Position numbers and translations under genes: made by a program | Shown: positions 6,372 to 28,308 of the stretch, one piece after another | How the letters are laid out: every line of letters starts with the position of its first letter | Position numbering within the stretch: the first letter of the stretch is position 1 | Source: Promethearchaeota archaeon | GTDB lineage: Archaea > Asgardarchaeota > Hermodarchaeia > Hermodarchaeales > Hermodarchaeaceae | Direction: 5' to 3' | Assembly (NCBI GenBank): GCA_048938295.1 | Contig: JBHLMI010000011.1 | Coordinates: 34,270 to 66,269, forward strand | DNA length: 32,000 nucleotides | The notes under the pieces: generated by a model | Database searches by the model: none | Seen by the model: the letters and a program-made list of their open reading frames with translations, nothing else | Told to the model about the DNA's origin: nothing

Positions 6372-7586
6372 TTACAGTGTTTTGCGCTGCATTGTTTCTT
6401 TGAGAAGGATTGAGATGAGTAACGCGAGCAGGTCGAGGACGAGAAGGAGCATCATGGCCCAGAAGAAGGAGTAGAATAGCGAATTTACCAAATCCATTGC
6501 GAGAATAAGGACGATGCCACCGGCTTGCCCAAAGATCATAAGAACGCCAGCAGAGGTGCCTTCAGGAATGGGTTTTGTCATTTCAGCCCCCGTTTGCAGT
6601 CCCAAGGGTAATGCGGGCATGAGGAAAAATCCTAACAGGAAGGCGGATACTAGTAGTACGATGTAATCGGGATGATAGGCTAGCATGAAGGTGAAAGGTG
6701 CGGCAAGTAAGAGGGCGAGGATGATAAACGGTTTACGACGCTGATATTTATCGGACAAAGTGGGAATGATTACCGCTCCGATGATGCCCCCAAGAATGAT
6801 GATGGCACCTACTATTCCTGCTTGAGTGATATCAATAACTCGTCCTGCAAGAATTTGTTCAATCCATGTAGCAATGCCGTTAAAGATGCCCAAACCAACG
6901 AAGAAGAGCACTATCAGAATAATGAATTGTCTGATTCCGATGATTTGACGAAGCCCTTTGAGCATCTTTTCGTCTTCGGGTTCATCGAGTTCCGGAGGAG
7001 ACGGCGGGTGCTCTTTAGCGACGAATAGAAACAAAACCGCTGCGATGACAGCGATCACCGCATAGCTGAGCATGGTATAAAAGAACCCAATGCCGACAAC
7101 CGCAAAGGGGGTGACTAATAATCCAAGCATAATTCCAAGAAAAATGGCCATTGTACCTAATCCCGTGGCAAGGCCCCGCTCCTTTGCCGGAAACCAACGG
7201 CGCGCAATTTTGGTAGGGCTGTTAAAGACAAAGGGTTGTCCAATTGCGATACCGCCTGATAAGGCCAATAAGAGAAGATAGTTGGGGGCAAATACGCGAA
7301 ATACAGCAAATACTGCGGTGATTATTGCACCGACACCAGCGGCGTATCGAAAGCCTTTACTGTCGATTAGATACGCCGAGGGGATCGAGACCGGGATGTA
7401 GACAGCCATGAAAATTAGTGAAAGCAGTGCCACATCGAGCTCGGTCACCCCGTAGAGACTGGCGACCATTGAAGAAATCGGTGCAAAGGTGATCCATAAG
7501 ATCTGTGTAACTGCTGCAATGAACATAAACACTAACAAAACAATCCAGCGATATCCATAAACAGGCGCTTCTGTTGCTTTAGTCAC
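6372..7586 (-). CDS. MFS transporter (FLVCR-like subgroup by N-terminal motif)
   Basis: About 12 TM helices; VYGYRWIVL, QILWITFAPI, WFPAKERGLATG, LSDKYQRRKP. Confidence 0.88.
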   Translation of the reverse strand: MTKATEAPVYGYRWIVLLVFMFIAAVTQILWITFAPISSMVASLYGVTELDVALLSLIFMAVYIPVSIPSAYLIDSKGFRYAAGVGAIITAVFAVFRVFAPNYLLLLALSGGIAIGQPFVFNSPTKIARRWFPAKERGLATGLGTMAIFLGIMLGLLVTPFAVVGIGFFYTMLSYAVIAVIAAVLFLFVAKEHPPSPPELDEPEDEKMLKGLRQIIGIRQFIILIVLFFVGLGIFNGIATWIEQILAGRVIDITQAGIVGAIIILGGIIGAVIIPTLSDKYQRRKPFIILALLLAAPFTFMLAYHPDYIVLLVSAFLLGFFLMPALPLGLQTGAEMTKPIPEGTSAGVLMIFGQAGGIVLILAMDLVNSLFYSFFWAMMLLLVLDLLALLISILLKETMQRKTL

Positions 7587-7684
7587 GAAATAACCACCTA
7601 GACAACCTGGTCTACGATTCGAATCAATAGACTACTAGTCACAAATGGGCTAGGACTTTCTAATATACCTAGCTATCTTCGTGT

Positions 7685-8380
7685 TCACAGGGATTCAGGC
7701 TGCTCTTTTTTCAGCCATTCTCGTAAGAAGCTAAGCATCCGCTTGTTGGCTAGAGAAGCTGCAGCTGCATTGTAAGCGTCTTTTACATCTTCTTCGAAGA
7801 ACCAATGAGACGTGTGGGGATATTCATGAAAGTCGATTACCCCTCGTCCCGCAGCTAAGCGTGTTCGCAGTTTTTGCATGGCCTCCGGTCCTGACCCCCA
7901 TTCATCATTTTCCGCAAAATGCCCTTGAACGGGAATCGTAAATTCTCGGAATAGACCTCCTGCAACACCATAGAACAAAACCACCGCACCGACATCTTTT
8001 GCCTTTGTTCGAGCAAGATTCATTGCAAAGCGCACACCCAACGAAAAGCCAATAATGCCGATTTTCTCACCATCCACTGCAGGATGGGATTTCATGAACT
8101 CCGCAGCCATTTTGACCTGTTTCTCTGCCTCCTTTCGATCCAGTTGGCCACTGAGCGCTTTCGCCGTTTCTACGCTAGTGGCTACCTGCCCATTATAATA
8201 ATCTGGAGCAAACGTGATAAACCCCTCTCCGGCCAACCGCTTGGCAAGACCTTTAAAGAATTCATTCAGGCCCCACCATGCAGGTAACAGCAAGAGACCA
8301 GGTCCTGACTGATTCTTTGGGAACGTTAGAACACCGGCGACTGGGCTCTCAAGAAACTGGAAAATTACAGTAGAAGTCAT
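7685..8380 (-). CDS. Dienelactone hydrolase family protein (Ser-nucleophile variant)
   Basis: PAWWGLN, FAPDYY, KIGIIGFSLG, VVLFYG, HFAENDEW, YPHTSHWF. Confidence 0.88.
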   Translation of the reverse strand: MTSTVIFQFLESPVAGVLTFPKNQSGPGLLLLPAWWGLNEFFKGLAKRLAGEGFITFAPDYYNGQVATSVETAKALSGQLDRKEAEKQVKMAAEFMKSHPAVDGEKIGIIGFSLGVRFAMNLARTKAKDVGAVVLFYGVAGGLFREFTIPVQGHFAENDEWGSGPEAMQKLRTRLAAGRGVIDFHEYPHTSHWFFEEDVKDAYNAAAASLANKRMLSFLREWLKKEQPESL

Positions 8381-8453
8381 GATATTGTTCCCTCCCTCAA
8401 ACCGTTATCTACTTTTTCCACTAGATTTTGAAGACAGTGCGGTTGGTCCAACT

Positions 8454-9278
8454 TTATCGGTGCCTGGTTTCTACTCTATCGAGCCATTCGTTCACTAGAC
8501 TGTTGAACAGTGTTGGTTGTTCCAGTTGGAGCGCATGACCGGCTTGGTCGAGTACCGCGAAGGTCGCTCGGGGGTAATTTTCAAGGATAGTCCAAGCATC
8601 GCGGTAACCCACCCAATGATCTTGGCGGCCTACAATAATCAGAGTTGGTTTGTCAAAACGAAATTCGGGGGGATTGAGCGTGAAGCTGAATTTATCCTTT
8701 CGTGGGTCCAATCGTGCTAGAAACGTCGTGTCAGCGATTTTCACAGCGGGAGTGATTTCTTGGGAATAGCGGTGCCAATGATTGCGTGTCTGTATCACCG
8801 CTACTTCCATGAACCCTTCACGGTCTTGCGGGGGTAATTCTGCTAAGAAATCCTTCTCCCGTACAATCACGGTTTTTGTGGGAAGGGCTCTTTGTTTGGG
8901 ATTCCCAATGGTGCGGGGCACGATTAAGAGAAGCCCGTTTACCCGGTCAGGTTTCTTATTGACTAGCCCTTGCGCAAGATACCCTCCATAGGAAAGCCCA
9001 GCTACGACAAATTGCTCCTTGGGAATTATTTTGTCGATAAAACCAAACAAGAGCTCTAATACGTCATTCGAGGTTTTTATCCAGTCAATTCCGGGTGTTT
9101 TTCCATGTCCCGGTAAATCAGGATAGATTCGCTGCCATCTCTTTCGGGACTTGAATATTGGCTCCAATGATCCAACCATTGAGCGATGGTCAAGGGTAGA
9201 ACCATGAAGTGAGATAATTGGGGTGCCTTCTCCAAAGACTTTGTAGTGAATAGGGACATCTCGCACTTCGCATATCAT
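8454..9278 (-). CDS. Alpha/beta fold hydrolase
   Basis: LHG oxyanion motif, PDLPGHG, nucleophile elbow GLSYGG, GRQD (Asp), AGHAL (His). GAGGTG RBS. Confidence 0.9.
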   Translation of the reverse strand: MICEVRDVPIHYKVFGEGTPIISLHGSTLDHRSMVGSLEPIFKSRKRWQRIYPDLPGHGKTPGIDWIKTSNDVLELLFGFIDKIIPKEQFVVAGLSYGGYLAQGLVNKKPDRVNGLLLIVPRTIGNPKQRALPTKTVIVREKDFLAELPPQDREGFMEVAVIQTRNHWHRYSQEITPAVKIADTTFLARLDPRKDKFSFTLNPPEFRFDKPTLIIVGRQDHWVGYRDAWTILENYPRATFAVLDQAGHALQLEQPTLFNSLVNEWLDRVETRHR

Positions 9279-9454
9279 CGATTACACCTCACTTGATGAA
9301 ATGGGTAACAGACACAGGTAATCTATCTTGTGATACATACTATTGGACTTTTCTTAAACCATAATCTGATTTCATTTGCCAGATAGATGAAAACGACGAC
9401 TAGCGTGATGAACAGGATAACACAGCACTCAAGAAGCTATTGACCAGCAAAGGA

Positions 9455-10390
9455 TTACCGTGGTTTGTAAAGGTCTGTGCTCAAGTATTTTAGCCCTGAA
9501 TCGTTTAGCAACGTGACGACGGTGGCTTTCGGTCCTAATGTTTTCGCGATCCTAATGGCTGCTACCACATTGGCACCTGACGAAGTACCTGCGAAGAGTC
9601 CTTCCTCTCGTGCTAAGTGTTGAGCCATCTCTTTGGCTTCCTGTGTGGAAACTCGCATTATCTCATCAATCAAACTGGGCTTCCACAACGGGGGTATAAA
9701 CCCAATACCGATTCCATCGATACCATGAGCTCCCCTGCTCCCACCAGACAACACAGGTGATTCGTTCGGTTCAACAGCTACTATTTTCACATCTGGATGC
9801 TGCTTTTTCAAAACCATCGCGGTTCCCATGAGCGATCCTGCCGTCCCAACGACTTGGACAAAGGCATCAACCGTTCCCTCTGTTTGCTCCCAAATTTCTT
9901 CACCGAGGGCAAAATATCCGGAGATCTGGTCTTGGTTATACAGTTGATTTGTCCAGTAGGTTTCAGGTGTTTCACTAATTTTGCGCGCTTTTTCAATCAT
10001 TGCCTCAATTAATTCCTTGGTTATCCCGCGTCCATGACTCGGAATAACTGTTACTTCCGCACCTAAAGCCTGCATATGATCCAGTTTATCACGACTAAAG
10101 GCATCCGAAGAGATTATCCGAAGCCGATACCCTTTCGCTGCACAAATAAATGCTAACGATGTGCCCGTACTTCCCCCGGTATATTCAACTACCGTTCCAC
10201 CCGGTTTCAACCGCCCATCTTGTTCGGCTTTAACAATCATTGCTTGTGCCATACGATCTTTCATGCTCCCCGTTGGGTTTTCCCACTCCAACTTTACAAG
10301 CACACGGGCATATCCCTTTGGAACCACTTGCTGCAACTGCACCAATGAAGTATTCCCAATGGCGGCTAGAATATTCGCTTCACTTTTCAC
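9455..10390 (-). CDS. PLP-dependent cysteine synthase family protein (non-canonical substrate loop)
   Basis: KLEWENPTGSMKDR (PLP Lys), GTAGS, TSSGAN, DSGLKYLS. Substrate loop reads EYTGGSTG rather than EPTSGNTG. Confidence 0.88.
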   Translation of the reverse strand: MKSEANILAAIGNTSLVQLQQVVPKGYARVLVKLEWENPTGSMKDRMAQAMIVKAEQDGRLKPGGTVVEYTGGSTGTSLAFICAAKGYRLRIISSDAFSRDKLDHMQALGAEVTVIPSHGRGITKELIEAMIEKARKISETPETYWTNQLYNQDQISGYFALGEEIWEQTEGTVDAFVQVVGTAGSLMGTAMVLKKQHPDVKIVAVEPNESPVLSGGSRGAHGIDGIGIGFIPPLWKPSLIDEIMRVSTQEAKEMAQHLAREEGLFAGTSSGANVVAAIRIAKTLGPKATVVTLLNDSGLKYLSTDLYKPR

Positions 10391-18635: not shown

Positions 18636-19127
18636 CTAGTGTAGCTTGATCTGCTTCATTTTTCGTTGGGGGCTAGGTTCCCGTTTGGGTATTTCCAGGT
18701 TTAAGACACCATTTTCCATGGTGCCTTCCGCGAGGTCGGGGTCGACTTCTTCGGGGAAGTTGATGGTTCGTTGGCTAGCAGAATAGCTTCGTTCGCGGTG
18801 CACAAATTCTTGGTCGTTTGCTGCTTTTTCTAATTTTCTTTCTGCGCGGATGTTCAATGTGTCATTGTTCAACTCGATTTTGACCATTTCCTTGCTATAT
18901 CCGGGGAGTTCTGCTTTGATCAAGTATTGGTGGCCCTGATCGATGATATCGACAAGGGCTGCTCGAGTCGGCAAGGCATCCATTCTACTTGGCTCCCATG
19001 CTCGCATCGGGAGGAAGGGCGCCATCATATTGTCGAAAGATCTCTTGAAGTCGTCGAAGAGGGAATCAAATCCGCGGTAGAGGCGGTTATCGTTTCTCGG
19101 TTCAACCGCTACTCGTTGTTCGTTCAT
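18636..19127 (-). CDS. hsp20: Small heat-shock protein Hsp20
   Basis: Alpha-crystallin domain (VDIID...IKAELPG...RER.Y....RTINFPEEVD...A...NGVL...IPK) with C-terminal IxI-type QIKL. The true start is TTG 19187 or ATG 19127, downstream of its promoter, not the ORF-track start at 19283. Confidence 0.92.
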   Translation of the reverse strand: MNEQRVAVEPRNDNRLYRGFDSLFDDFKRSFDNMMAPFLPMRAWEPSRMDALPTRAALVDIIDQGHQYLIKAELPGYSKEMVKIELNNDTLNIRAERKLEKAANDQEFVHRERSYSASQRTINFPEEVDPDLAEGTMENGVLNLEIPKREPSPQRKMKQIKLH

Positions 19128-19187
19128 AGGAGAAGTTACGATGGCTTTTTTAGCTGCTGTTTGTCTCGACGTGTTTACTACCTTCAA

Positions 19188-19208
19188 TTTACAACTTTTT
19201 GTAGTAAA
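19188..19208. promoter_or_regulatory. Operator palindrome TTTACAAC-N5-GTAGTAAA at hsp20 promoter
   Basis: 8-5-8 inverted repeat with 7 of 8 matches, starting about 19 nt downstream of the TATA box. A near-identical copy lies at 20100-20120. Confidence 0.75.
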
Positions 19209-19226
19209 CCTTATATTACTAACTTG

Positions 19227-19234
19227 CTTATAAA
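19227..19234 (-). promoter_or_regulatory. TATA box of hsp20
   Basis: TTTATAAG on the minus strand; predicted TSS ~19202, inside the operator. Confidence 0.6.
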
Positions 19235-19333
19235 TATATCGGTAAAACACATCTCTCATAGCGAATAATTGCCCAAAGATCAATCAAATCCAAGAATTAC
19301 TCTAATGAAATGGGGCCTTGAGGTTCGTTAGTT

Positions 19334-20080
19334 TTATTCGAACAGGGTGGTGTCCAGGCTTGCTTTTAATTCGCTAATTATCTCTTTTACAGTGGCTTCC
19401 CGCAGATTCAACACTTCAGAAATACGTCTTATGCTGTCGTCATGGGAATCAATGGCATGGTGCAAGACGCGGCGGGCATCGGGGCTATCAATTTGCTGCA
19501 CCATCTTGCGGGTTTCTTTCATCACGCTGTTTCGAATGTAAAGGAGAACCAGTTTTTCTTCTTCGAGGTAATCGAGGTGTTCATCTATATCTGTTAGAAT
19601 CTCTGCTAAGTGATCGATTTTCCTCTCTTCTTTAGGATATTTGAAAAGTTCCTTCACTCGATTCAGGAAGGCTGCTGCCTTTTCAGAAAGGGTTTCTTGG
19701 TCTGGCTCTACATCAAAGGCTATTACTTTCTCTTTGAAGAGATGTGGACCGATGTTCACCATGATAGCGAGGCTCTTGTTTAAGAAGTAGATTCGCCGTT
19801 TGGGTCCTTGAGGGCTTGTTTCTTTAGCAGACTCAACGAGCTGTGCCTTTTCCATGATTTTAAGATGTTTGGCGACAAGTTGTTGACTTAAATTGAGGTC
19901 TTTGGCAAGCTGGAGAGGGTAATTGGGTTCTTGGCTTAAACGTTGGATAACTAGTCGGCGAATGGGGCTGTCTAAAATTCGCAAAATTGAATCGAGCTCG
20001 GTATCGCGTCTCGGTTTGACTCCAGTTTCCTTTCCTTTTTTGGAAGTTGATACAATCTTTTTTTTGCTCTTACTATTCAT
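19334..20080 (-). CDS. ArsR-type wHTH regulator, Phr/HSR1-like heat-shock repressor
   Basis: LRILDSPIRRLVIQRLSQEPNYPLQLAKDLNLSQQLVAKHLKIMEKAQLV...GPKRRIY, then a coiled coil and a second HTH-like C-terminus. Adjacent to hsp20 and shares its operator. Confidence 0.75.
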   Translation of the reverse strand: MNSKSKKKIVSTSKKGKETGVKPRRDTELDSILRILDSPIRRLVIQRLSQEPNYPLQLAKDLNLSQQLVAKHLKIMEKAQLVESAKETSPQGPKRRIYFLNKSLAIMVNIGPHLFKEKVIAFDVEPDQETLSEKAAAFLNRVKELFKYPKEERKIDHLAEILTDIDEHLDYLEEEKLVLLYIRNSVMKETRKMVQQIDSPDARRVLHHAIDSHDDSIRRISEVLNLREATVKEIISELKASLDTTLFE

Positions 20081-20176: not shown

Positions 20177-21871
20177 TCACGCTGTAACAACCTCAATTTT
20201 GAGTTTGGGTTTACTAATCACTTCACGTTGTTCTTTGAGGATGTTTCGGGCAATGTCTAAGGCTGTTTCATCATCGTAGACGCCTTGAGCGTTTTTCCGT
20301 GCTTCTTGGAGCATCTGACGCTGCACCTTGAGTTTCAAATCCCCAATGGTCAACGCACCAATACCATAGTTTTCAGGAATTAGCTCACGAAAATCATCTG
20401 TAGGAGTTAGAGATTCGATTCCACTTGGAGGTACAGCATTTACATCCAATAGAATTTTTGTCCCTAAAACAGATTGCAGCTGTTCGAGTGATACTAATTG
20501 AATACCCGGAGAGCCAACAGCGAAAATAAGGTTAGCATCCTCTAGAAGTTCATGAAGGTCATCAGGTGAAGTTGATTGCACGCCTTCCACTTTATTACTC
20601 TCGATTGAGGCCCGGTGCGCTACTTCTCTGGCCCGGTCAATATTTCGTGAGGTTAATACTGTCAGCGCTCCACTCTTGGAAAGTAAATGAGCCACACTTT
20701 CTCCAACTGGTCCTGTACCTGCAAGAACTAACGCAATGTTACTTTTGAGTGAACCTTGGTTAAGTCTGCGCAGAGCTTCCTCAGCTTTGGCAACCATAGC
20801 CGCCGCCGTGGAAAATGCACCGTGTGGATCAATAATTACTGCCGTTTCGAAAGGTTTCACCATGGCCTTTTGAATTCTGTCTGCCATTTGACGAGCAAGG
20901 GAAACCTGACGTCCTCCAACAAAGAAGCAAAGATGCTTTACTCCCTTGGTTCCCCTTGAAAAGATAGCATCTTGGACTAAGTCTTGAATCCGATCAAGCG
21001 ACACTCCAGAATATGGAACTACAACATCAAATCCTGCGTCGTACGCTACACAGATATCAAACGGGCTAGCGTGGTCATCCGCTTCTAGGAAAAAAAGAAT
21101 GTCACTTAGTTTTGTTTTTGGGCGCTTAATCACTGGCACAACAGAAACCGAAGAAACTCCTGTGAGCTCCGTCATGCCTTTCATTTCCTCTTTTGGCACT
21201 TCTGAAAGAATTCGTTTGAAGCTTATAGGGACCACATCTACCTCCAAGGATTGCAAAAGTTCCATTAAACCTTGGAAATGTCTGGGGCTGCTCAAGTGAA
21301 ACGTGGTTATTCGCTTCTTCTTAAGAAGTTCAGCTTGTTGTAAAATCCCCATAGTAATCCAGCTTTCACGGATTCCAAATTGTACTTGTCTAATTTCCTC
21401 TTCAAGTTCATCGTGCAAGTACTGACCATAGGCGACAAGCCGATCTATTTTGTCTTGCACACTTGGAGTTATTTTTTCATCTGATAGGATTCTTAACCCG
21501 TCTAAGACCTCATTGCGCTTTTCCAGTTTCAACTTGATACTCCGTGAGAGGTATGAGTGAGCGAACTCGTCCATTTCAACCGCATAAAAAGGGATCTTTA
21601 ATTTTGAGAATACATCCGCTACTGGGTTGTCTTCACGGAATTCCTTCAAGCTCCGCAGACCCAATTCATCGGTGGCAAAATCTGGTGACTCTGATTCAGC
21701 AATCTGCTTGATCATATCGCAATAAGCCATTGAAGGGCGTTTTATTGCAGAAATCTTCGATTCAGATTCAGAAGGAGGGGAATGAATGAGCCAAGGTTCG
21801 TCATAGGCCTTTCTAATTAGGAAGACCCGCAATTTTTTCCCACTTAAAGGGGCAAGCTCTAACGTTTTCAA
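20177..21871 (-). CDS. Fusion: N-terminal TraB/ChaN/EreA-like domain plus NAD(P)-dependent methylene-H4MPT/H4F dehydrogenase (MtdA-like)
   Basis: C-terminal ~305 aa: SPFDICVAYDAGFD, QDAIFSRG, FVGG, DPHGAFSTAAAMV, VLAGTGPVG, LTSR, DVNAVPPSGI, GALTIGDLK. N-terminal ~235 aa is soluble, with PDFATDEL, RE and RHFQGLMELL. TTG start with AGGTGA RBS. Confidence 0.85.
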   Translation of the reverse strand: MKTLELAPLSGKKLRVFLIRKAYDEPWLIHSPPSESESKISAIKRPSMAYCDMIKQIAESESPDFATDELGLRSLKEFREDNPVADVFSKLKIPFYAVEMDEFAHSYLSRSIKLKLEKRNEVLDGLRILSDEKITPSVQDKIDRLVAYGQYLHDELEEEIRQVQFGIRESWITMGILQQAELLKKKRITTFHLSSPRHFQGLMELLQSLEVDVVPISFKRILSEVPKEEMKGMTELTGVSSVSVVPVIKRPKTKLSDILFFLEADDHASPFDICVAYDAGFDVVVPYSGVSLDRIQDLVQDAIFSRGTKGVKHLCFFVGGRQVSLARQMADRIQKAMVKPFETAVIIDPHGAFSTAAAMVAKAEEALRRLNQGSLKSNIALVLAGTGPVGESVAHLLSKSGALTVLTSRNIDRAREVAHRASIESNKVEGVQSTSPDDLHELLEDANLIFAVGSPGIQLVSLEQLQSVLGTKILLDVNAVPPSGIESLTPTDDFRELIPENYGIGALTIGDLKLKVQRQMLQEARKNAQGVYDDETALDIARNILKEQREVISKPKLKIEVVTA

Positions 21872-21896: not shown

Positions 21897-22027
21897 TTAA
21901 GGCTTCTTCCCATCTGAGAAAAAGGCGATGAAAATTTATTTTAGATGAAAAAAGACAATTTTTATAGTCAAGCTCGTTGCCCAAGGCAAATTGTGAACTA
22001 GATCGGGGCAGATATCTTAAGTTCAAA

Positions 22028-23371
22028 TCATGTTTTTCGTTCTCCAGCTTCTCTAAATCTATAATCTGTATGAGCTGCACAAGAAACGCAGGGATCAAAA
22101 CATCGAACAGCCATCATAGCCCGTTCAAGGATTTTTTCATTTGGCCAACCAAGATTTATGCAAGCACTCATGACGTTTTGTACAATCACCGCTATCGCAC
22201 GGGCATTAAGCTCTGTTGGCACTCGAATGTCGATATCTTTGATTCTGTTGCTACTATTTGTACTTACTCGGTAAAGGAGAATTCCCCGTGGAGCTTCAAC
22301 TGCACTAGCTCCGATTCTAGTTCCTGGTGTCAACCCAATTGAAGAGTCTTCATCTTTCGACCATTCTGTTTCCAACAGGTTGATTGCATTTGTGAGAGCG
22401 AATTCCATTTCGTCAATTCGAAGAAGCCCGGTTTGGAACAGGTTAGGCACTCCTATGTACGATTTCTTACTTTTCGTTGGCTTAGACTGAAGTACAGCTA
22501 GTCGGGCATAAGGCCCCGCTAAGAGATTCTTGGATTCGTCGTTTGATTTGATGTAGACAACTTTTGTGGGGGCATCTAACAGGTCCTGCTCCACTAAGTA
22601 TTCAGAGAAATCATCACAGGCAACGGTTTCATGTGTTCCATCATCAGAAATGAAATGGACCTGATTAAGACCAGAAAACCGGTTGGCCTTTGTTTCAAAG
22701 GAGCTAATATAAAGTGGAAGAGGAAGTGCATAGTGTTGGATTTCCTCTTCGATTTCATCTAGTAGCGAATTGTAGTATTCTTTAGTCCATTTCACTCCCG
22801 AGAGCGTTGAAGAAAGTTGTTGGATAAGATCTTGCTGTTGAGTGCTATTGATGTTTTGAACGACTCCACCTGGAATCAGGTTAAAGGCTAAATTAGTATT
22901 ACCTGCTGTTGCGGTGATTAACGCTTCTGCACACTCGTATAATTTTGTAGCAATTGGTAGAACTCGTGGTTGCATGCGATCAATGCCAAGGATGTCTTGT
23001 CGAGAGATTTGGTTTGTAAGATACATCAAATCAGCCAAAGTAGAAAAGAACACACTATATGTGTGCGATCGGATGATTTCTCCCAAGAGCGCCAGTTCGC
23101 GGATTAACTCGGCAATTGGGGGAATTGATACATCTGTAGTCGATTCAATTGCTTTTATTGCTCCTATTCTATGGGCAACTGGACAAATTCCACAGATCCG
23201 CGGAACAATTTTTGGTAAGTCATTAATGTGTTGTCCAATTAGAACGTTCAAAAAGTCCCGTGCCGTTGGCATGTTATATACAACATTTGTTATGCGATCT
23301 TTGTCTCGCGTTACAATGAGCTTGCTTTCGCCTTCTATCCGTGTCATTGGTAAGGATAGTCGAATTTTCAT
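22028..23371 (-). CDS. mvhA: Group 3 [NiFe]-hydrogenase large subunit (MvhA-like), divergent
   Basis: TRIEG, L1 PRICGICPVAH, GPYAR, EAPRG, VPT, L2 FDPCVSCAAH, then a 13-aa C-terminal extension. ATGA overlap with the mvhG stop. Confidence 0.88.
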   Translation of the reverse strand: MKIRLSLPMTRIEGESKLIVTRDKDRITNVVYNMPTARDFLNVLIGQHINDLPKIVPRICGICPVAHRIGAIKAIESTTDVSIPPIAELIRELALLGEIIRSHTYSVFFSTLADLMYLTNQISRQDILGIDRMQPRVLPIATKLYECAEALITATAGNTNLAFNLIPGGVVQNINSTQQQDLIQQLSSTLSGVKWTKEYYNSLLDEIEEEIQHYALPLPLYISSFETKANRFSGLNQVHFISDDGTHETVACDDFSEYLVEQDLLDAPTKVVYIKSNDESKNLLAGPYARLAVLQSKPTKSKKSYIGVPNLFQTGLLRIDEMEFALTNAINLLETEWSKDEDSSIGLTPGTRIGASAVEAPRGILLYRVSTNSSNRIKDIDIRVPTELNARAIAVIVQNVMSACINLGWPNEKILERAMMAVRCFDPCVSCAAHTDYRFREAGERKT

Positions 23372-24102
23372 TGTTTAAACTTCAGCTCCGGTTTTTGATA
23401 TCTAAAAGCGAGAGCCGCATACTTACGAATGGCGTCGCTGACTTTTATGAGAGAGAAGAAATTAGCGAGAGTCGAGGGTAGATTCCGGTCTATGGCACCC
23501 ATACAGCCATCACAGGGAGTGGCTCCCTTAATACAAAGGGCTTCACACCCTGCACGGGTTATTGGGCCTAAACAGAGTATTCCCTCGCGTAAAAAACAGC
23601 TTTGGGGAGGGCGTACGTTATGTAAGGACGTTATCTCAACATCAAATGCTTGATCTTGGGCAAACGGGCATTCTCCACACACGTTTTTGTCAGGGAGTTC
23701 GATTTCAGAACCATCAATTGCGCTCATCAACAGATTTCCAAGTAACTTTCGTGGTGGCGGACAGCCAGGTAATGACATGTATAAGTCAACGAATTTACTG
23801 ATGGGATCTATACGCATGTTGGGGGATTGGCTCATTATTCCACCGAGAACGGCACAGCTTCCCAAAGCGATGATTTTGGTTCCTGCGGTCCATAGTCTTC
23901 GAAGAAGTTCCGCGTCTTCATCTCGAGTGACTCCACCTTCTACAAATGCGATATCTAAATCCGTGTCAACTTGAACATCAGAGATTAATCGAAACACACG
24001 AATATCAACTGATTTAAGGAGTTCAGGGAATAGGGCGCTACCAAGTATGGCAAACATACACCCGCTACAGGAGTTTAGTTGAAGAAAACCAATCTTAGTC
24101 AT
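23368..24102 (-). CDS. mvhG: [NiFe]-hydrogenase small subunit (MvhG-like)
   Basis: SCSGC, VEGGV, ALGSCA..GGI, LPGCPP, VCGECP, CFL..G..CLGP.TRAGC.A.C....PC.GC.G. TAATG overlap with the hdrA fusion stop. Confidence 0.9.
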   Translation of the reverse strand: MTKIGFLQLNSCSGCMFAILGSALFPELLKSVDIRVFRLISDVQVDTDLDIAFVEGGVTRDEDAELLRRLWTAGTKIIALGSCAVLGGIMSQSPNMRIDPISKFVDLYMSLPGCPPPRKLLGNLLMSAIDGSEIELPDKNVCGECPFAQDQAFDVEITSLHNVRPPQSCFLREGILCLGPITRAGCEALCIKGATPCDGCMGAIDRNLPSTLANFFSLIKVSDAIRKYAALAFRYQKPELKFKQ

Positions 24103-26630
24103 TAGCCTAATAGCTCCTCTAATTCAGTGGAAAATTGATTGACCTGGTTCGCGAACACGTGACCTTCAACGGCTGACACATTCAATACGCGTACACGTTT
24201 TTGTAGTTCGTCTCCATAAAAATCTGCGAGAACACCAATTCGTGTCTGAGCCTTCTTGATACCCTCAAAGAACCGGCAAGCTGTTTCATGACAGCCAACA
24301 ACCATAACACCATCAAATCCGTGGTTTAACGCTGTTATTACATAATTTGCATCGATTGAACCCGCGCATGGCAGTCTAATGACCATTGCACCAGGATCAT
24401 AGTCCAGTCGACGAATGCCTGCATTATCCACTGCCGGGTATCCACATGAGTTGCAGGAAAACACAATTATTCGGGGGGAGGCTGTGCTCATTGAGAGGGC
24501 ATTCATTGCAGCTTGAACCTCCTCCTGAATTGGAGGGGAAGCCAGAGCTCCGGTTGGGCATATTGCGATGCAGGCTCCACAGCCTTCACATTTTAGCGTA
24601 TCGATACGAAGTGTGTCAGCTATGATGGCGAGAGCGTTAAAGGGACAGGACTCTACACAGAGATTACAAAGCCCACATTTTTCTTGATTAATTTGAATTG
24701 GTATGTCCCCTGCAGGGAGGCTATCTTTTCCTAATAGAAGAAGAACTTCTAATGCGGTATCTCGAGAATCTGCTACTAAGTCGGCATAAGCTTTAGGACC
24801 AGTTATAGACCCACAAGCCCAAATACCTGAGGATAAGCTCTTTGGGTCAATGAAACCTCGTCTATCCAAGGAAAAATTCGTCATACTACGAAGGGTTAGC
24901 TGTTGGTCTCCTGGCGTCATACCCATATTGAGAACAATAAGATCTGCTGGGAATGAATTTGAATCAGTTTGGATTAAGCGTTTATGCCCCCGATGAATGA
25001 TCTTAATGCTTTCACAAAAGTGAATATGAGAATATTCTGGGATGAAGGTGCTTCGATCAGGGGGAATTAAGGCTATCTGGTAAAGGACATTGATGGAAGT
25101 ATTGGGCGCCTTTTTTTCTACAATCTCTAGGTATTTGAGCGCGAGGTTACAGCAGTAGTTTGAACAAGCCTTGGTTCGGTTCTGACATTGAAGAACAATT
25201 ATGGAACGGGCAGGTTGGCCGGTTGTTGGGCAGATTATATTGCCTCCTGTTGGTCCATCAGGCGCTAGCATACGTTCAAATTCGGATGAAGTGATAATAT
25301 CCTTAGCAGGGTTATATTGAATTGCTCCTTGAGATGGCAAGGTTTTAGGATCGCATACTTCTGCGCCTGTTGCAAGAATTATGGCACCAACCGTGAACTT
25401 CTTGGTTACAGGTTCTTGATCAAGATTAATCGCTTTAGATGGGCATGCTTTTTCGCATTTTCGGCATGTCCGGCAAAAATCAATATCCTCCTGTTCAATG
25501 ACGGGTCTACTAGGATATGCGGCAGGGCAAGGCACATGGATGAGTTTACGTTGGCTAATATGGTACTCAAATGCATCTGGACGAGACTCAGGACACGTAT
25601 CGACACAAGAGCCGCACATTATGCATTTTGATAAATCGACATATCGGGGCTGTTGCAGAGCAGTAATCTCATAATTGCCAATTGTTCCTGAAATATCGGA
25701 GAGTTCGGTATTAGTAAGAATTCGTATGTTCCCTGAAAGCATAACTGAGGATACATCCTCAGCAATCATACATGGACCACAATCGATAGCCCCATAGATG
25801 CTTTCCCATCGCCGCGCGATTCCACCTAGACATGACTCTTTCTCTAGCAGAATAATGGAATAGTTGGATTGAGCCAAAACCTTGGCAACCTCTACTCCAG
25901 CTAGTCCACCACCAATGATGGCGGCACTTTTCCGAATTGGTAACGTACGCTTTGGAATTGAGACCCGATGCCGGAGCATCTCAGCGCTGGCCCGTATTAG
26001 AAGTAACGCTTTTTCTGTGGCTTGCTCGGGTTTATTTCTATGAACCCAAGCACAATGTTCACGTATGTTCGCGAATTCAATGGGTATATCCAATTGCATT
26101 CGAATAGCGGTAAACATTTGGCTGTGAAGGTGAGGGGAGCAGGCTGCAATTACAAGATTATTCAGAAAATACCGATCACACCATGCTTTTAGTTTCTCAA
26201 CGTTTTCTAACAAACATAAATGCTGAAACACCATTGTACGTTCAACATATGGCAGATCATTGACTTTCTCCATAAGCTCCCCGACATTAATGGCTTGATG
26301 AATTTCCTCCCCACAAGAACAGACAATTACGCCAATACGGAAAATTGCTCCTCGTGAATCCGCTTCGCTCAGATCGATTGCCTCTCCGGCCATCAATTGT
26401 TCCTTGGCGGTCATTAGGCGGATTGCATTTGTTCCTGCGGCGGAAAGTTGATAGAAGCCATTCCGTTTCTCTATGAACCCCTCCAGTTTTTTGAGATGAT
26501 AATTGAAGAGACCTGTTTTCGTGAGCCCTAATCTTTTCATCAAATCATTATAGGTGATTAGTCGTTCAGCGTCTAATATTCGAAGAATTTGTTCGCGGAG
26601 TGGATGGGCCAAAGCCGCATATACATTCAT
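24102..26630 (-). CDS. hdrA: Winged-helix HTH :: HdrA :: MvhD triple fusion protein
   Basis: aa 1-80: wHTH (ALAHPLREQIL...GLFNYHLKKL...YQLS..G). HdrA part: IGVIVCSCG, AACSP, NIREHCAWVH, IIGGGLAG, DCGPC, two inserted CxxCxxCxxxCP, EFERM, CSNYCC, two C-terminal ferredoxin motifs. MvhD part: FSCNSCGYP, RLPCAG, DGV..VGC....CRF..G. Confidence 0.9.
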   Translation of the reverse strand: MNVYAALAHPLREQILRILDAERLITYNDLMKRLGLTKTGLFNYHLKKLEGFIEKRNGFYQLSAAGTNAIRLMTAKEQLMAGEAIDLSEADSRGAIFRIGVIVCSCGEEIHQAINVGELMEKVNDLPYVERTMVFQHLCLLENVEKLKAWCDRYFLNNLVIAACSPHLHSQMFTAIRMQLDIPIEFANIREHCAWVHRNKPEQATEKALLLIRASAEMLRHRVSIPKRTLPIRKSAAIIGGGLAGVEVAKVLAQSNYSIILLEKESCLGGIARRWESIYGAIDCGPCMIAEDVSSVMLSGNIRILTNTELSDISGTIGNYEITALQQPRYVDLSKCIMCGSCVDTCPESRPDAFEYHISQRKLIHVPCPAAYPSRPVIEQEDIDFCRTCRKCEKACPSKAINLDQEPVTKKFTVGAIILATGAEVCDPKTLPSQGAIQYNPAKDIITSSEFERMLAPDGPTGGNIICPTTGQPARSIIVLQCQNRTKACSNYCCNLALKYLEIVEKKAPNTSINVLYQIALIPPDRSTFIPEYSHIHFCESIKIIHRGHKRLIQTDSNSFPADLIVLNMGMTPGDQQLTLRSMTNFSLDRRGFIDPKSLSSGIWACGSITGPKAYADLVADSRDTALEVLLLLGKDSLPAGDIPIQINQEKCGLCNLCVESCPFNALAIIADTLRIDTLKCEGCGACIAICPTGALASPPIQEEVQAAMNALSMSTASPRIIVFSCNSCGYPAVDNAGIRRLDYDPGAMVIRLPCAGSIDANYVITALNHGFDGVMVVGCHETACRFFEGIKKAQTRIGVLADFYGDELQKRVRVLNVSAVEGHVFANQVNQFSTELEELLG

Positions 26631-26704
26631 CTTGGGGTCCTTCTCGTGATTTCTGTGGAGAAATACCTTAGATAACTCTAATTGTCAAGAAACATAACTT
26701 AGAC

Positions 26705-26735
26705 AAAAAAGCTTGCCCTGTTTAAAAAGGCAAGC
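26705..26735 (-). terminator. Hairpin plus U6 tract downstream of the zinc-finger gene
   Basis: GCTTGCC (26711-26717) pairs with GGCAAGC (26729-26735), 11-nt loop, followed by TTTTTT on the minus strand, about 40 nt after the 26773 stop. Confidence 0.6.
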
Positions 26736-26772
26736 AATGGCTGCAACTATTCTTGCTACTTCTGATGAGAAA

Positions 26773-27018
26773 TTACATCTTTTTACTCTCAGAAGTAGGA
26801 ATGGGAGCACGATAGCGCGTTTGATAGCAATTGCGGCAAATGTAGCGAGGCATAACGTTAAGCGCACCACACCATGGGCATTTCCAAAAATCGATCGTTG
26901 TTAGTGTCACATCGGCCTCACGTCGGATATAACGACAATGCTGGCATAAACGTAAATGAATAAAATTTGATACTCCACATTTCGGACACGTCCAATACTT
27001 CAAATTCCACCACCCCAC
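26773..27018 (-). CDS. Small protein with two RanBP2-type zinc fingers
   Basis: WTCPKCGVSNFIHLRLCQHC and WKCPWCGALNVMPRYICRNC both fit W-x-C-x2-C-x3-N-x6-C-x2-C exactly. GTG start; downstream terminator. Confidence 0.75.
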   Translation of the reverse strand: MGWWNLKYWTCPKCGVSNFIHLRLCQHCRYIRREADVTLTTIDFWKCPWCGALNVMPRYICRNCYQTRYRAPIPTSESKKM

Positions 27019-27211
27019 GAGGATCTCTTATTGCTACTTTCTCATTAAATCTCCTAAGTTGTGCTATAGGATGCGCGGGTTTCATAGCGACTCTATATTG
27101 ATTTCAGCCGAATCTTCACATCCTAGCATATAGTAGGAGGGAACGAAAAAACAAAAACACTCTGAAAAACATCATTTCCAAAGTGTGACAAATAATTTTA
27201 TCTTGAGCTTG

Positions 27212-27227
27212 TTGTCAATCTTGACAA
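27212..27227. promoter_or_regulatory. Perfect 7-2-7 palindrome TTGTCAA-TC-TTGACAA
   Basis: Intergenic, about 195 nt upstream of the zinc-finger gene. The cognate factor is unknown. Confidence 0.4.
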
Positions 27228-27311: not shown

Positions 27312-27638
27312 TCATTTTATTTGTTCAAGTTTCTCTAGCATTTGTTGGCGATATCGTTCTAAAGCGGTTTTCCCCTCATCAGAGAGTTGGATGAGCGTGT
27401 GGGGAATTTTATCAACGAATTCTTTGGTGATCCTAACATAGCCGACGGTTTCCAGTTTGCTGAGATGAGAAGAGAGATTACCGCGCGTGAGGCCCGTGCG
27501 GCGTAAGATGAACAGGAAATCTGCACTCTCGACTTCTTTGAGAATGGTGAGGATTTTCAGACGTGCTGGCGAATGGACAATAGGATCAACATCCTCATCC
27601 TCGATGGAAGAGAATGGGGGGGAGTTAGAGGAGGGCAT
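27312..27638 (-). CDS. Winged-helix transcriptional regulator (MarR/ArsR-like, HTH_34 type)
   Basis: VDPIVHSPARLKILTIL...ADF...TRGNLSSHLSKLE..GYV..TKEF....PHT...LS.EG..A...Y. Start is refined to ATG 27638 (GGTGA RBS), overlapping the upstream gene by 14 nt. Confidence 0.87.
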   Translation of the reverse strand: MPSSNSPPFSSIEDEDVDPIVHSPARLKILTILKEVESADFLFILRRTGLTRGNLSSHLSKLETVGYVRITKEFVDKIPHTLIQLSDEGKTALERYRQQMLEKLEQIK

Positions 27639-28308
27639 GGGGCGTCTCACCTTCAATGGACTCGGTGTGTTCGACTGGATAGTGGTGCAGGAATCGGAGA
27701 AACAGGATAGTGCCGAATAAGAGAGCGAGGAGCCCAATGGCGGCGTATTGGATGGCAAGGGTTGTGAAAAACGCCGCATATGCGCTGGGAAAACTGAGAG
27801 GCAACCATGGCACGAGAATCCCAATGAGAGGCGGAAGAACCGCAAATAGATAATAGCGGGCAACGTGGTATTTGCGGGCGATGATAAAGAGCCCAATGGA
27901 AATTAAGACGCTAAAGGTGACGGGGGCAATCCAGATTAACCAGAAGAACAGTCCATCATATCCGGAGAAGATGAATAAGACCACCGGCGGAAGGATGAGC
28001 AGAATCATAATCGAGACCAGCACAAGGACTGCTGTGCGTGTACTCGTGGCTTCCAAGGGCTTGGGCTTGACATATCCGACGCGGGGATAGACCCACCGTT
28101 GTTTAGCTCGCTCAATGAGCGGTCTATATAGCAGGGGATTAAGGGTCAGGATCATAACCCACAGGAATGTGATATTGTGGGCAAGCAGGGTGAGAAGGGC
28201 AGCCAAGCCAAGAAGAATGACGGCCATGAAAAGGTCAGCGAGTCCATCCTCATAATAGGCTTGTTGGACTTTCAGAGCGAGTGCATCTAATTCTGTGGAG
28301 GTTGACAT
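27625..28308 (-). CDS. Integral membrane protein (about 6 TM) coupled to the wHTH regulator
   Basis: YYEDGLADL and YPRVGYVKP motifs between hydrophobic helices; overlaps the regulator start. Confidence 0.75.
   Translation of the reverse strand: MSTSTELDALALKVQQAYYEDGLADLFMAVILLGLAALLTLLAHNITFLWVMILTLNPLLYRPLIERAKQRWVYPRVGYVKPKPLEATSTRTAVLVLVSIMILLILPPVVLFIFSGYDGLFFWLIWIAPVTFSVLISIGLFIIARKYHVARYYLFAVLPPLIGILVPWLPLSFPSAYAAFFTTLAIQYAAIGLLALLFGTILFLRFLHHYPVEHTESIEGETPHALL

Follow-up and report, generated by a model that had tools for sequence, protein, structure and literature searches.

Trigger enzymes combine a catalytic and a DNA-binding domain in one polypeptide, and PutA of E. coli and Salmonella, in which an N-terminal ribbon-helix-helix DNA-binding domain is joined to a proline-oxidising flavoenzyme, is one of them. 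Redox- or H2-dependent control of hydrogenase genes by a winged-helix regulator or a sensing hydrogenase is known from SurR of the Thermococcales and from the regulatory hydrogenases (HoxBC-HoxJ/HoxA); there, unlike in the protein described below, the metabolic enzyme is distinct from both the sensor and the DNA-binding protein. Here, we describe a gene of a Promethearchaeota archaeon (NCBI GenBank assembly GCA_048938295.1, contig JBHLMI010000011.1, positions 34,270 to 66,269) whose product carries a predicted winged helix-turn-helix (wHTH) domain of ArsR/SmtB type at the N-terminus of an HdrA-MvhD protein; the 32,000 nucleotides analysed are referred to as the window, and positions are those of the window. 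The HdrA, MvhD, MvhG and MvhA modules of the MvhAGD-HdrABC complexes of methanogens (5ODC, 8RVU) are all present at this locus and agree in fold and sequence, but MvhD is joined to HdrA, neighbouring genes for HdrB or HdrC are absent, HdrA carries a 97-residue extension with the winged helix, and the cluster is linked to a gene for an Mtd-like protein. The HdrA core with a C-terminal MvhD is shared with HdrA2 of Methanosarcina (NF040770) and other HdrA-MvhD fusions; HdrA2, however, pairs with hdrB2C2, whereas the protein described here goes with mvhG and mvhA. The fusion thus combines known kinds of building blocks, namely HdrA-MvhD fusions, ArsR regulators and trigger enzymes. By analogy with PutA, we consider it fairly probable that wHTH-HdrA-MvhD is a self-regulating trigger enzyme, with the winged helix as the candidate DNA binder.

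The fused hdrA gene (24102..26630, minus strand) is an open reading frame (ORF) of 842 amino acids (aa) with an ATG start, the translation of which reads MNVYAALAHPLREQILRIL... and is free of stops across both domains. All parts of the protein are encoded on the minus strand in the following order: the winged helix (aa 1-80, 26391..26630), recognised by Pfam, AlphaFold2, a profile search of the PDB and Foldseek; an acidic linker after Met80 (aa 81-97, 26340..26390), seen in the full-length model and the alignments; the HdrA core (aa 98-712, 24495..26339), composed of N-terminal iron-sulfur (Fe-S), flavin adenine dinucleotide (FAD), inserted and C-terminal ferredoxin domains according to phmmer and Foldseek; and the MvhD/FlpD domain (aa 721-840, 24102..24470 including the stop codon). 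In Pfam, the N-terminus matches DUF7347 (PF24038) at aa 3-71 (E 1.5e-13, 51.2 bits, cut-off 27.6) and, more weakly, HTH_20 (24.1 bits, just under the cut-off of 27) and HTH_24. These matches are followed by FAD/NAD Rossmann (Pyr_redox) and ferredoxin domains and finally by FlpD/MvhD (PF02662, 111 bits versus a cut-off of 22.3), and the solved MvhD chains (5odc, 8rvu) align to aa 714-840 with E-values of 1e-18 to 1e-20 (5odc_D, 1.3e-19). The solved HdrA chains 8rvu, 5odc and 7bkb align over aa 98-709 with E-values of 1e-70 to 1e-91 in phmmer. Since these alignments begin only at aa 98 of the query, which corresponds to residues 2-13 of the solved chains, aa 1-97 represent a true N-terminal extension. 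This confirms an earlier note, made from the letters of the window alone, which had placed a winged helix fused in frame to the N-terminus of HdrA at 26390-26630, i.e. aa 1-80 (nucleotides 26391-26630).

In the full-length AlphaFold model (predicted local distance difference test, pLDDT, 86.9), the HdrA core starts from a strand at residue 99, and a Foldseek search with this core returned 5odc_A (E 1.4e-55) and 8rvy_A (template modelling score, TM, 0.75). The best NCBIfam match was HdrA2 (NF040770) with 527 bits over aa 98-517, far under the equivalog cut-off of 1100, and hdrA_Methbact and HdrA scored 355 and 310 versus cut-offs of 1300 and 1400, respectively. Since all these scores lie below the equivalog cut-offs, they assign the protein to the HdrA family without allowing a transfer of function. 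A catalytic and a DNA-binding-type domain are found in one polypeptide, as in trigger enzymes. Like PutA, the protein has the DNA-binding-type domain N-terminal on a large flavoenzyme, candidate operators at genes of its own pathway and a flavin whose redox state is a plausible switch. The differences are that PutA uses a ribbon-helix-helix instead of an ArsR-type winged helix, that the enzymes are unrelated and that the switch of PutA involves membrane binding.

An assembly artefact, in the form of a lost stop codon or a frameshift between the domains, can practically be dismissed as an explanation of the fusion. Contigs from three other sequencing runs, one of them from a second study, span the junction (26318-26816 and 26365-26646) with zero indels, and the frame is shared by no fewer than 117 genomes and by some 80 protein clusters. 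Using aa 1-95 as query and considering HdrA-length proteins only, we recovered 13 clusters of 840-845 aa with identical architecture. With aa 96-560 as query, about 80 clusters of 839-885 aa were obtained, all composed of PF24038, HdrA and FlpD, down to 35% identity; their source names include Hod-, Hermod-, Jord-, Odin- and Lokiarchaeota plus one truncated Thorarchaeota entry. The next matches to this query, bacterial proteins of about 1000 aa and HdrA proteins of 640-660 aa, were without winged helix. Close and distant homologs are thus all fused in a single frame, and neither a split into two genes nor an interrupted junction, the two outcomes that would have spoken against the fusion, was seen.

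When 400 genomes of the phylum were scanned in six frames, residues 1-235 lay in one open frame in at least 117 of them, and this frame was about 850 aa long wherever the contig contained the whole gene. The fusion was found in six of the 15 genomes of the genus to which the window belongs and in the families f14, f15, f16, f20 (about 89 of 135 genomes), f21, f28 and f31 (our numbering), while the remaining families gave only matches starting near aa 97, i.e. without the winged helix. In a maximum-likelihood tree of the HdrA core, every fused protein fell into one clade (Shimodaira-Hasegawa-like approximate likelihood-ratio test, SH-aLRT, 100), and the other HdrA paralogs of the window genome lay outside of it. 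Five members of this clade had been scored as unfused; their sequences are truncated at contig ends or annotated as partial. Because all fused proteins form this one clade and the apparently unfused members are merely truncated, the tree indicates that the fusion originated once and has not been lost since. No winged helix was found on any unfused HdrA relative recovered in the searches or in the tree.

The N-terminal 80 residues form, judged from sequence profiles and structure prediction, an ArsR/SmtB-type winged helix. The AlphaFold2 model of the isolated domain (pLDDT 86) has the topology helix-helix-helix-wing-helix, with helices at aa 10-22, 27-34, 39-48 and 64-80 and strands at aa 53-56 and 59-62; aa 39-48 (TGLFNYHLKK) correspond to the recognition helix and aa 53-62 to the beta wing. 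A profile built from 38 N-termini matched 1y0u, a putative ArsR protein of Archaeoglobus, with E 2.8e-6, followed by PagR and ArsR. Among the top 50 Foldseek matches to the domain, nearly all were ArsR/SmtB and MarR regulators, including DNA-bound NolR; the list was led by 3f6o, 1y0u, CadC, Rv0081, the NolR-DNA complex, BigR and PagR at TM scores of 0.5-0.68 and E-values of 1e-3 to 4e-2, which are modest, as expected for so small a domain. Profile, predicted topology and structural neighbours therefore uphold the assignment as an ArsR-like wHTH that had been made from a sequence pattern in the earlier note. The domain shares the fold, the sequence family and the 'HLK.L' motif of the recognition helix with ArsR/SmtB repressors such as A. 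fulgidus 1Y0U, PagR, CadC and NolR. It differs from them in that it has no Cys metal site and that the 'sensor' would be a redox enzyme of 760 aa. As aa 1-80 contain zero Cys, with H9 and H45 as the only His residues, no canonical ArsR metal or arsenite site is present, although Cys-based alpha3N and alpha5 metal sites typify the founding members of ArsR/SmtB and not the whole family.

The conservation of the domain was followed in two alignments, one of 70 fused homologs with 36-80% identity and one of 38 fused homologs. R12, L16, G40, N43, H45 and L46 are invariant in both, K55 is invariant also among the 38, Y60, L62 and G66 are invariant also among the 70, and T39 is conserved to at least 90%. 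The invariant G40, N43, H45 and L46, together with T39, sit on the recognition helix, and T39, G40, N43 and Y44 presumably correspond to positions that contact bases or the backbone in DNA complexes of the ArsR family. The domain is basic, with 12 Lys/Arg versus 7 Asp/Glu and a net charge of about +5. When aa 1-95 were compared with aa 96-560, identities were 89 versus 78%, 82 versus 65% and 69 versus 55% for the homologs P0002, P0006 and P0013, respectively, which suggests that the winged helix is under stronger constraint than the enzyme core. A homodimer prediction for aa 1-96 scored 0.40 against a mark of 0.42 and was counted neither for nor against dimerisation.

A profile search of the whole library returned 2882 relatives of the domain, most of which are 90-470 aa long and combine an N-terminal copy of the domain with a C-terminal region that varies. 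Paralogs in the window genome include a DUF7347-type domain fused to a GyrI-like effector domain and another fused to a membrane RDD domain. Because the relatives pair the N-terminal domain with variable C-terminal parts, the module appears, from these architectures, to behave as the DNA-binding head of one-component proteins. The RDD-fused protein (248 aa; G000:C17:35236-35981, equivalent to L089:1486-2232) carries a recognition helix, GKLNFHLQRLE, that closely resembles the one of the fused HdrA, and could be a membrane-tethered regulator.

The linker between winged helix and HdrA core falls below a pLDDT of 50 at aa 87-94 in the full-length model and includes the invariant G82 and a conserved motif, RIL.GE. 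The earlier note had pointed out that the ATG of Met80 is preceded, at a distance of 7 nt, by the sequence AAGGA and that an isoform lacking the wHTH could thus be made. Correspondingly, the winged helix might be mostly unmade or vestigial, with a start at Met80 yielding a conventional HdrA-MvhD. The AAGGA is present as described, and Met80 is invariant in the 13 closest homologs, but it is conserved only in the subclade of the window's own protein; moreover, the motif consists merely of the codons for Lys and Glu, Leu occupies the position in most of the wider fused family, and 118 of 2297 crude genes contain an internal AAGGA-ATG pair. Since Leu prevails in the family and such pairs are common by chance, the short isoform is not supported. 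In addition, the start codon is found at an equal position in nearly all orthologs, a Shine-Dalgarno-like motif and the start codon at residue 1 are kept across lineages, and the winged helix is better conserved than the core. We therefore regard a loss of the winged helix by internal initiation as very improbable.

The fused gene heads a cluster that continues, on the minus strand, with an mvhG-like gene for a [NiFe] hydrogenase small subunit (23368..24102; PF01058, NCBIfam VhuG), the start of which overlaps the stop of hdrA, and an mvhA-like gene for the large subunit (22028..23371; PF00374, NCBIfam VhuA/FrhA). The stop and start codons of hdrA, mvhG and mvhA overlap, and 156 bp beyond mvhA lies a gene on the same strand for a 564-aa Mtd-like protein (20177..21871), which consists of an N-domain without Pfam match and an MtdA/B-like NAD(P) dehydrogenase domain (Mpt_N, PF09176, 101 bits). 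Further genomes of the genus and a more distant lineage (L087) share this string of genes. An mvhG gene follows the fused gene in every locus examined, with the exception of the second copy at locus L085. This locus, on a contig labelled Lokiarchaeota, has two wHTH-HdrA-MvhD copies about 7 kb apart (1-2476 and 7001-9532), one of which precedes mvhG and mvhA, while the other is without hydrogenase genes and faces an Mtd-like operon.

The Mtd-like gene is adjacent or divergent to the cluster in L009-L013, L084, L085 and L087. Within the genus, eight of the 15 genomes have it, namely all six with the fusion and two in which it lies on short contigs, and the other seven lack it. At L084 and L085 it is divergent from the fused hdrA and preceded by a homolog of its own N-domain; residues 64-192 of the Mtd-like protein match a stand-alone protein of 206 aa (E 5e-9 in a local BLAST search; L084:5965-6585). 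As this homolog is encoded just upstream of the Mtd-like gene in other Asgard lineages, the N-domain is fused in some lineages and separate in others.

No gene with a CCG domain (HdrB type) was found within the window, and the fused HdrA is thus not partnered by HdrB and HdrC there. The genome has 12 CCG matches, on contigs C5, C7, C22, C23, C43 and C51, of which those on C23 and C51 lie beside other hdrA paralogs. Conserved linkage with an Mtd-like NAD(P) dehydrogenase, in the absence of HdrBC, suggests a function of the complex other than heterodisulfide reduction. One could go further and regard the whole wHTH-HdrA-MvhD/MvhG/MvhA assembly as mainly an H2 or redox sensor, in other words a regulatory hydrogenase with a direct connection to DNA, instead of a metabolic bifurcating enzyme. 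Such a role would fit the missing hdrB and hdrC neighbours, which other hdrA paralogs of this genome do have in the form of CCG-domain genes, the patchy occurrence of the locus, which is present in 6-8 of the 15 genomes of the genus in the manner of an accessory cassette, and the alteration of the canonical HdrA stretch 'Y.DIR..GK' in the alignment to 8rvu. On the other hand, the Fe-S-aligned Cys residues, the FAD motif GxGxxG, EFER and the lysine of CC...K are invariant or nearly so in the 70 homologs, and the close link with the Mtd-like NAD(P) enzyme gives the impression of a metabolic module. A chiefly sensory role is distinctly unlikely in our view. As to the paralogs, one further HdrA match (G000:C51:20423-22387, L003) contains one in-frame TGA and one TAA; the TGA may encode selenocysteine, or the gene may be broken. 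Selenocysteine in Asgard HdrA has been reported (PMC11291895).

The promoters of the cluster share a candidate operator. Orthologous promoters in the genus have blocks with TTGTC and GACAA in common, and the full site is an 18-bp palindrome, TGACAA-N6-TTGTCA. In an unbiased k-mer scan of 30 non-redundant regions upstream of the fused gene, TGACAA/TTGTCA came out on top, being present in 20 of the 30 versus 3.25 expected from dinucleotide shuffles, and in an enlarged set the hexamer was found in 43 of 60 non-redundant regions. The hexamer reaches 4.1 per kb within the proximal 250 nt, compared with 1.2 further upstream and 0.45 in coding sequence, and only 7.5% of 1111 upstream regions of the window genome contain it. 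The fused gene is preceded by a perfect copy of the palindrome in family f14 (L030, L031, L033) and in two genera of f20 (L039, L066); perfect copies are also found in the gap between mvhA and the Mtd-like gene in G102 and L087. Counts of the perfect palindrome over five whole genomes (2.3-4.5 Mb; four genera in three families) were 1, 1, 1, 1 and 2, with all six copies at this locus and zero for the control with the reversed pattern; as these genomes were picked after the palindrome had been seen at their loci, only the exclusivity is an open test. The second copy in one of them (G167) precedes a homolog of the gene for the Mtd N-domain.

In the window, the promoter of the fused gene contains TGACAA-N6-TTATCT (26670..26687, minus strand; two mismatches) 40-57 nt before the ATG, within a block that is conserved in six orthologs of the genus. 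A second, weaker palindrome, GGGCAA-N6-TTGTCT (26701..26718, minus strand; three mismatches), forms a TTGTC-N15-GACAA pattern jointly with the first; its role is uncertain because it overlaps a terminator-like hairpin of the gene upstream. A description of this promoter as a single TTGTC-N15-GACAA inverted repeat was considered and replaced, as the pattern is better explained by two degenerate 18-bp sites lying side by side, whose inner halves form it. The Mtd-like promoter contains TGACTA-N6-TTGTCT (21953..21970, minus strand; two mismatches) 99 nt upstream of the start. Each of the eight Mtd-like genes in the genus is preceded by such a site, with no more than two mismatches, at -97 to -101, and four of them have a second one near -150.

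Immediately before the fused gene, an ORF of 81 aa on the minus strand (26773..27018) encodes a double zinc-ribbon protein with weak matches to Pfam zinc ribbons. Its coding sequence is conserved upstream in L009, L010 and the closest genomes, where it was missed by the gene callers, and it has a cluster of operator-like sites upstream and the terminator-like hairpin downstream. The site cluster (27186..27227) consists of TGACAA-N6-TTATCT (27186-27203) and the half-sites TTGTCA (27212) and TGACAA (27222). The assembly of another run of the same study (X2) lacks 12 nt at 27208-27219, between two CTTG direct repeats; since this removes the half-site TTGTCA, it represents a natural operator variant. 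Overall, three of the 28 intergenic sites with at most two mismatches in the window genome lie in the three promoters of the cluster, versus about 0.05 expected.

We propose that wHTH-HdrA-MvhD would act as a one-component autoregulator within an enzyme subunit. A single polypeptide would place the ArsR/SmtB-type winged helix, via the flexible acidic linker, on HdrA and MvhD at the head of the hdrA-mvhG-mvhA hydrogenase cluster, with its genetic link to the Mtd-like dehydrogenase gene. The winged helix would bind the palindrome, TGAC(A)A-N6-TTGTCA, at the promoter of its own operon, at that of the Mtd-like gene and, in this window, also upstream of the zinc-ribbon gene, and would thereby exert feedback on its own operon and on the Mtd-like gene. 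Occupancy would follow the state of the flavin/Fe-S core, in terms of either redox or assembly. HdrA is dimeric in solved complexes (5ODC), so that a dimer would offer two tethered winged helices to two half-sites. The fusion, the conservation of the domain and the conserved, locus-specific palindrome are observed, and the fold is consistently predicted; from these we infer binding to the palindrome, feedback control and a dependence of occupancy on redox or assembly state. A further step, namely that the [NiFe] hydrogenase/HdrA complex of electron-bifurcating type itself is the transcription factor and that its flavin/Fe-S redox state, reflecting H2 and the acceptor pool, directly governs how the two winged helices of the HdrA dimer occupy the predicted operators, is a tentative idea that we find possible but doubtful.

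Besides the choice of the five genomes, several points weigh against DNA binding by the winged helix. The support for it is indirect, consisting of the conserved locus-specific palindrome, and the window genome itself has no perfect copy; its sites carry two to three mismatches. A phylum-wide search for TGACAA-N4-8-TTGTCA gave counts near the reversed control in many families and counts raised genome-wide in f31 and f9; this variable spacer is too permissive to assign the motif, for which the fixed N6 spacer in single genomes is informative. Palindromes with spacers of 4-8 nt are enriched genome-wide in some families, including genomes without the fusion, which points to another regulator of similar specificity in the phylum. 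Other regulator genes lie close to some loci, i.e. an Lrp/AsnC gene in G167 and, upstream of the cluster in the window, an ORF with an HTH_34/ArsR-type winged helix according to Pfam (27312-27896, minus strand). Moreover, the DUF7347-RDD fusion in the same genome shows that the module also occurs outside classical soluble regulators. Finally, a winged helix docks a protein in a related complex: in class II benzoyl-CoA reductase, the MvhD-like adaptor BamF contacts BamI via its winged helix (bioRxiv 10.64898/2026.04.10.717634).

BamF resembles the protein described here in that it is an MvhD-type protein with a winged helix inside an HdrA-like bifurcating complex, and the winged helix at our locus might likewise be a structural or docking module that binds a subunit or a partner, e.g. 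the Mtd-like protein or its N-domain, with the palindrome being bound by a regulator encoded elsewhere. The palindromes of fusion-free genomes and the regulators near some loci would suit this explanation, and the conserved linker residues, G82 and the RIL.GE motif, could mark an interface. In BamF, however, the winged helix belongs to the adaptor, whereas here it sits on the N-terminus of HdrA, is of ArsR-like family and hangs on a tether that AlphaFold predicts with low confidence. Its nearest relatives in sequence and fold are bona fide DNA-binding repressors, its invariant residues lie on the recognition helix, and the domain is basic. An operator exclusive to the locus further argues for a regulator encoded locally, and the winged helix is the only conserved one, as no separate regulator gene was conserved next to the cluster across the lineages examined. 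The HTH_34 ORF was not found at the orthologous loci of other genomes and is therefore unlikely to be a conserved regulator of the cluster. Taken together, docking instead of DNA binding is an unlikely alternative to the self-regulating enzyme. Farther downstream of the cluster (18636-20080, minus strand), an Hsp20 gene lies beside a gene for a 248-aa ArsR-type regulator like SurR/Phr (NCBIfam E about 1e-15); these are likely a heat-shock regulator pair unrelated to the fusion.

The earlier note had named no characterised fusion of HdrA to a transcription-factor domain, and our full-text literature searches, in which absence is no proof of novelty, likewise yielded no text describing the fusion or DUF7347. 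Works on Asgard HdrA fusions or group 3c hydrogenases (PMC11237513, PMC11291895) are silent on it. New here is also the 18-bp palindrome that marks the promoters of the cluster. With a domain of 96 aa and a site of 18 bp, the proposal lends itself to in vitro assays, although the organisms are mostly uncultured.

Archaeal electron bifurcation has HdrA-type flavin/Fe-S modules at its core, and models of Asgard physiology and of eukaryogenesis give hydrogen metabolism a central place. If the proposal is true, the protein would be the first HdrA or hydrogenase subunit that serves as its own regulator and would add a new archaeal case to the trigger enzymes. Should redox control by the complex itself also hold, Asgard archaea would need no separate sensor to perceive hydrogen and redox state and to adjust a regulon of hydrogenase and C1 dehydrogenase accordingly.

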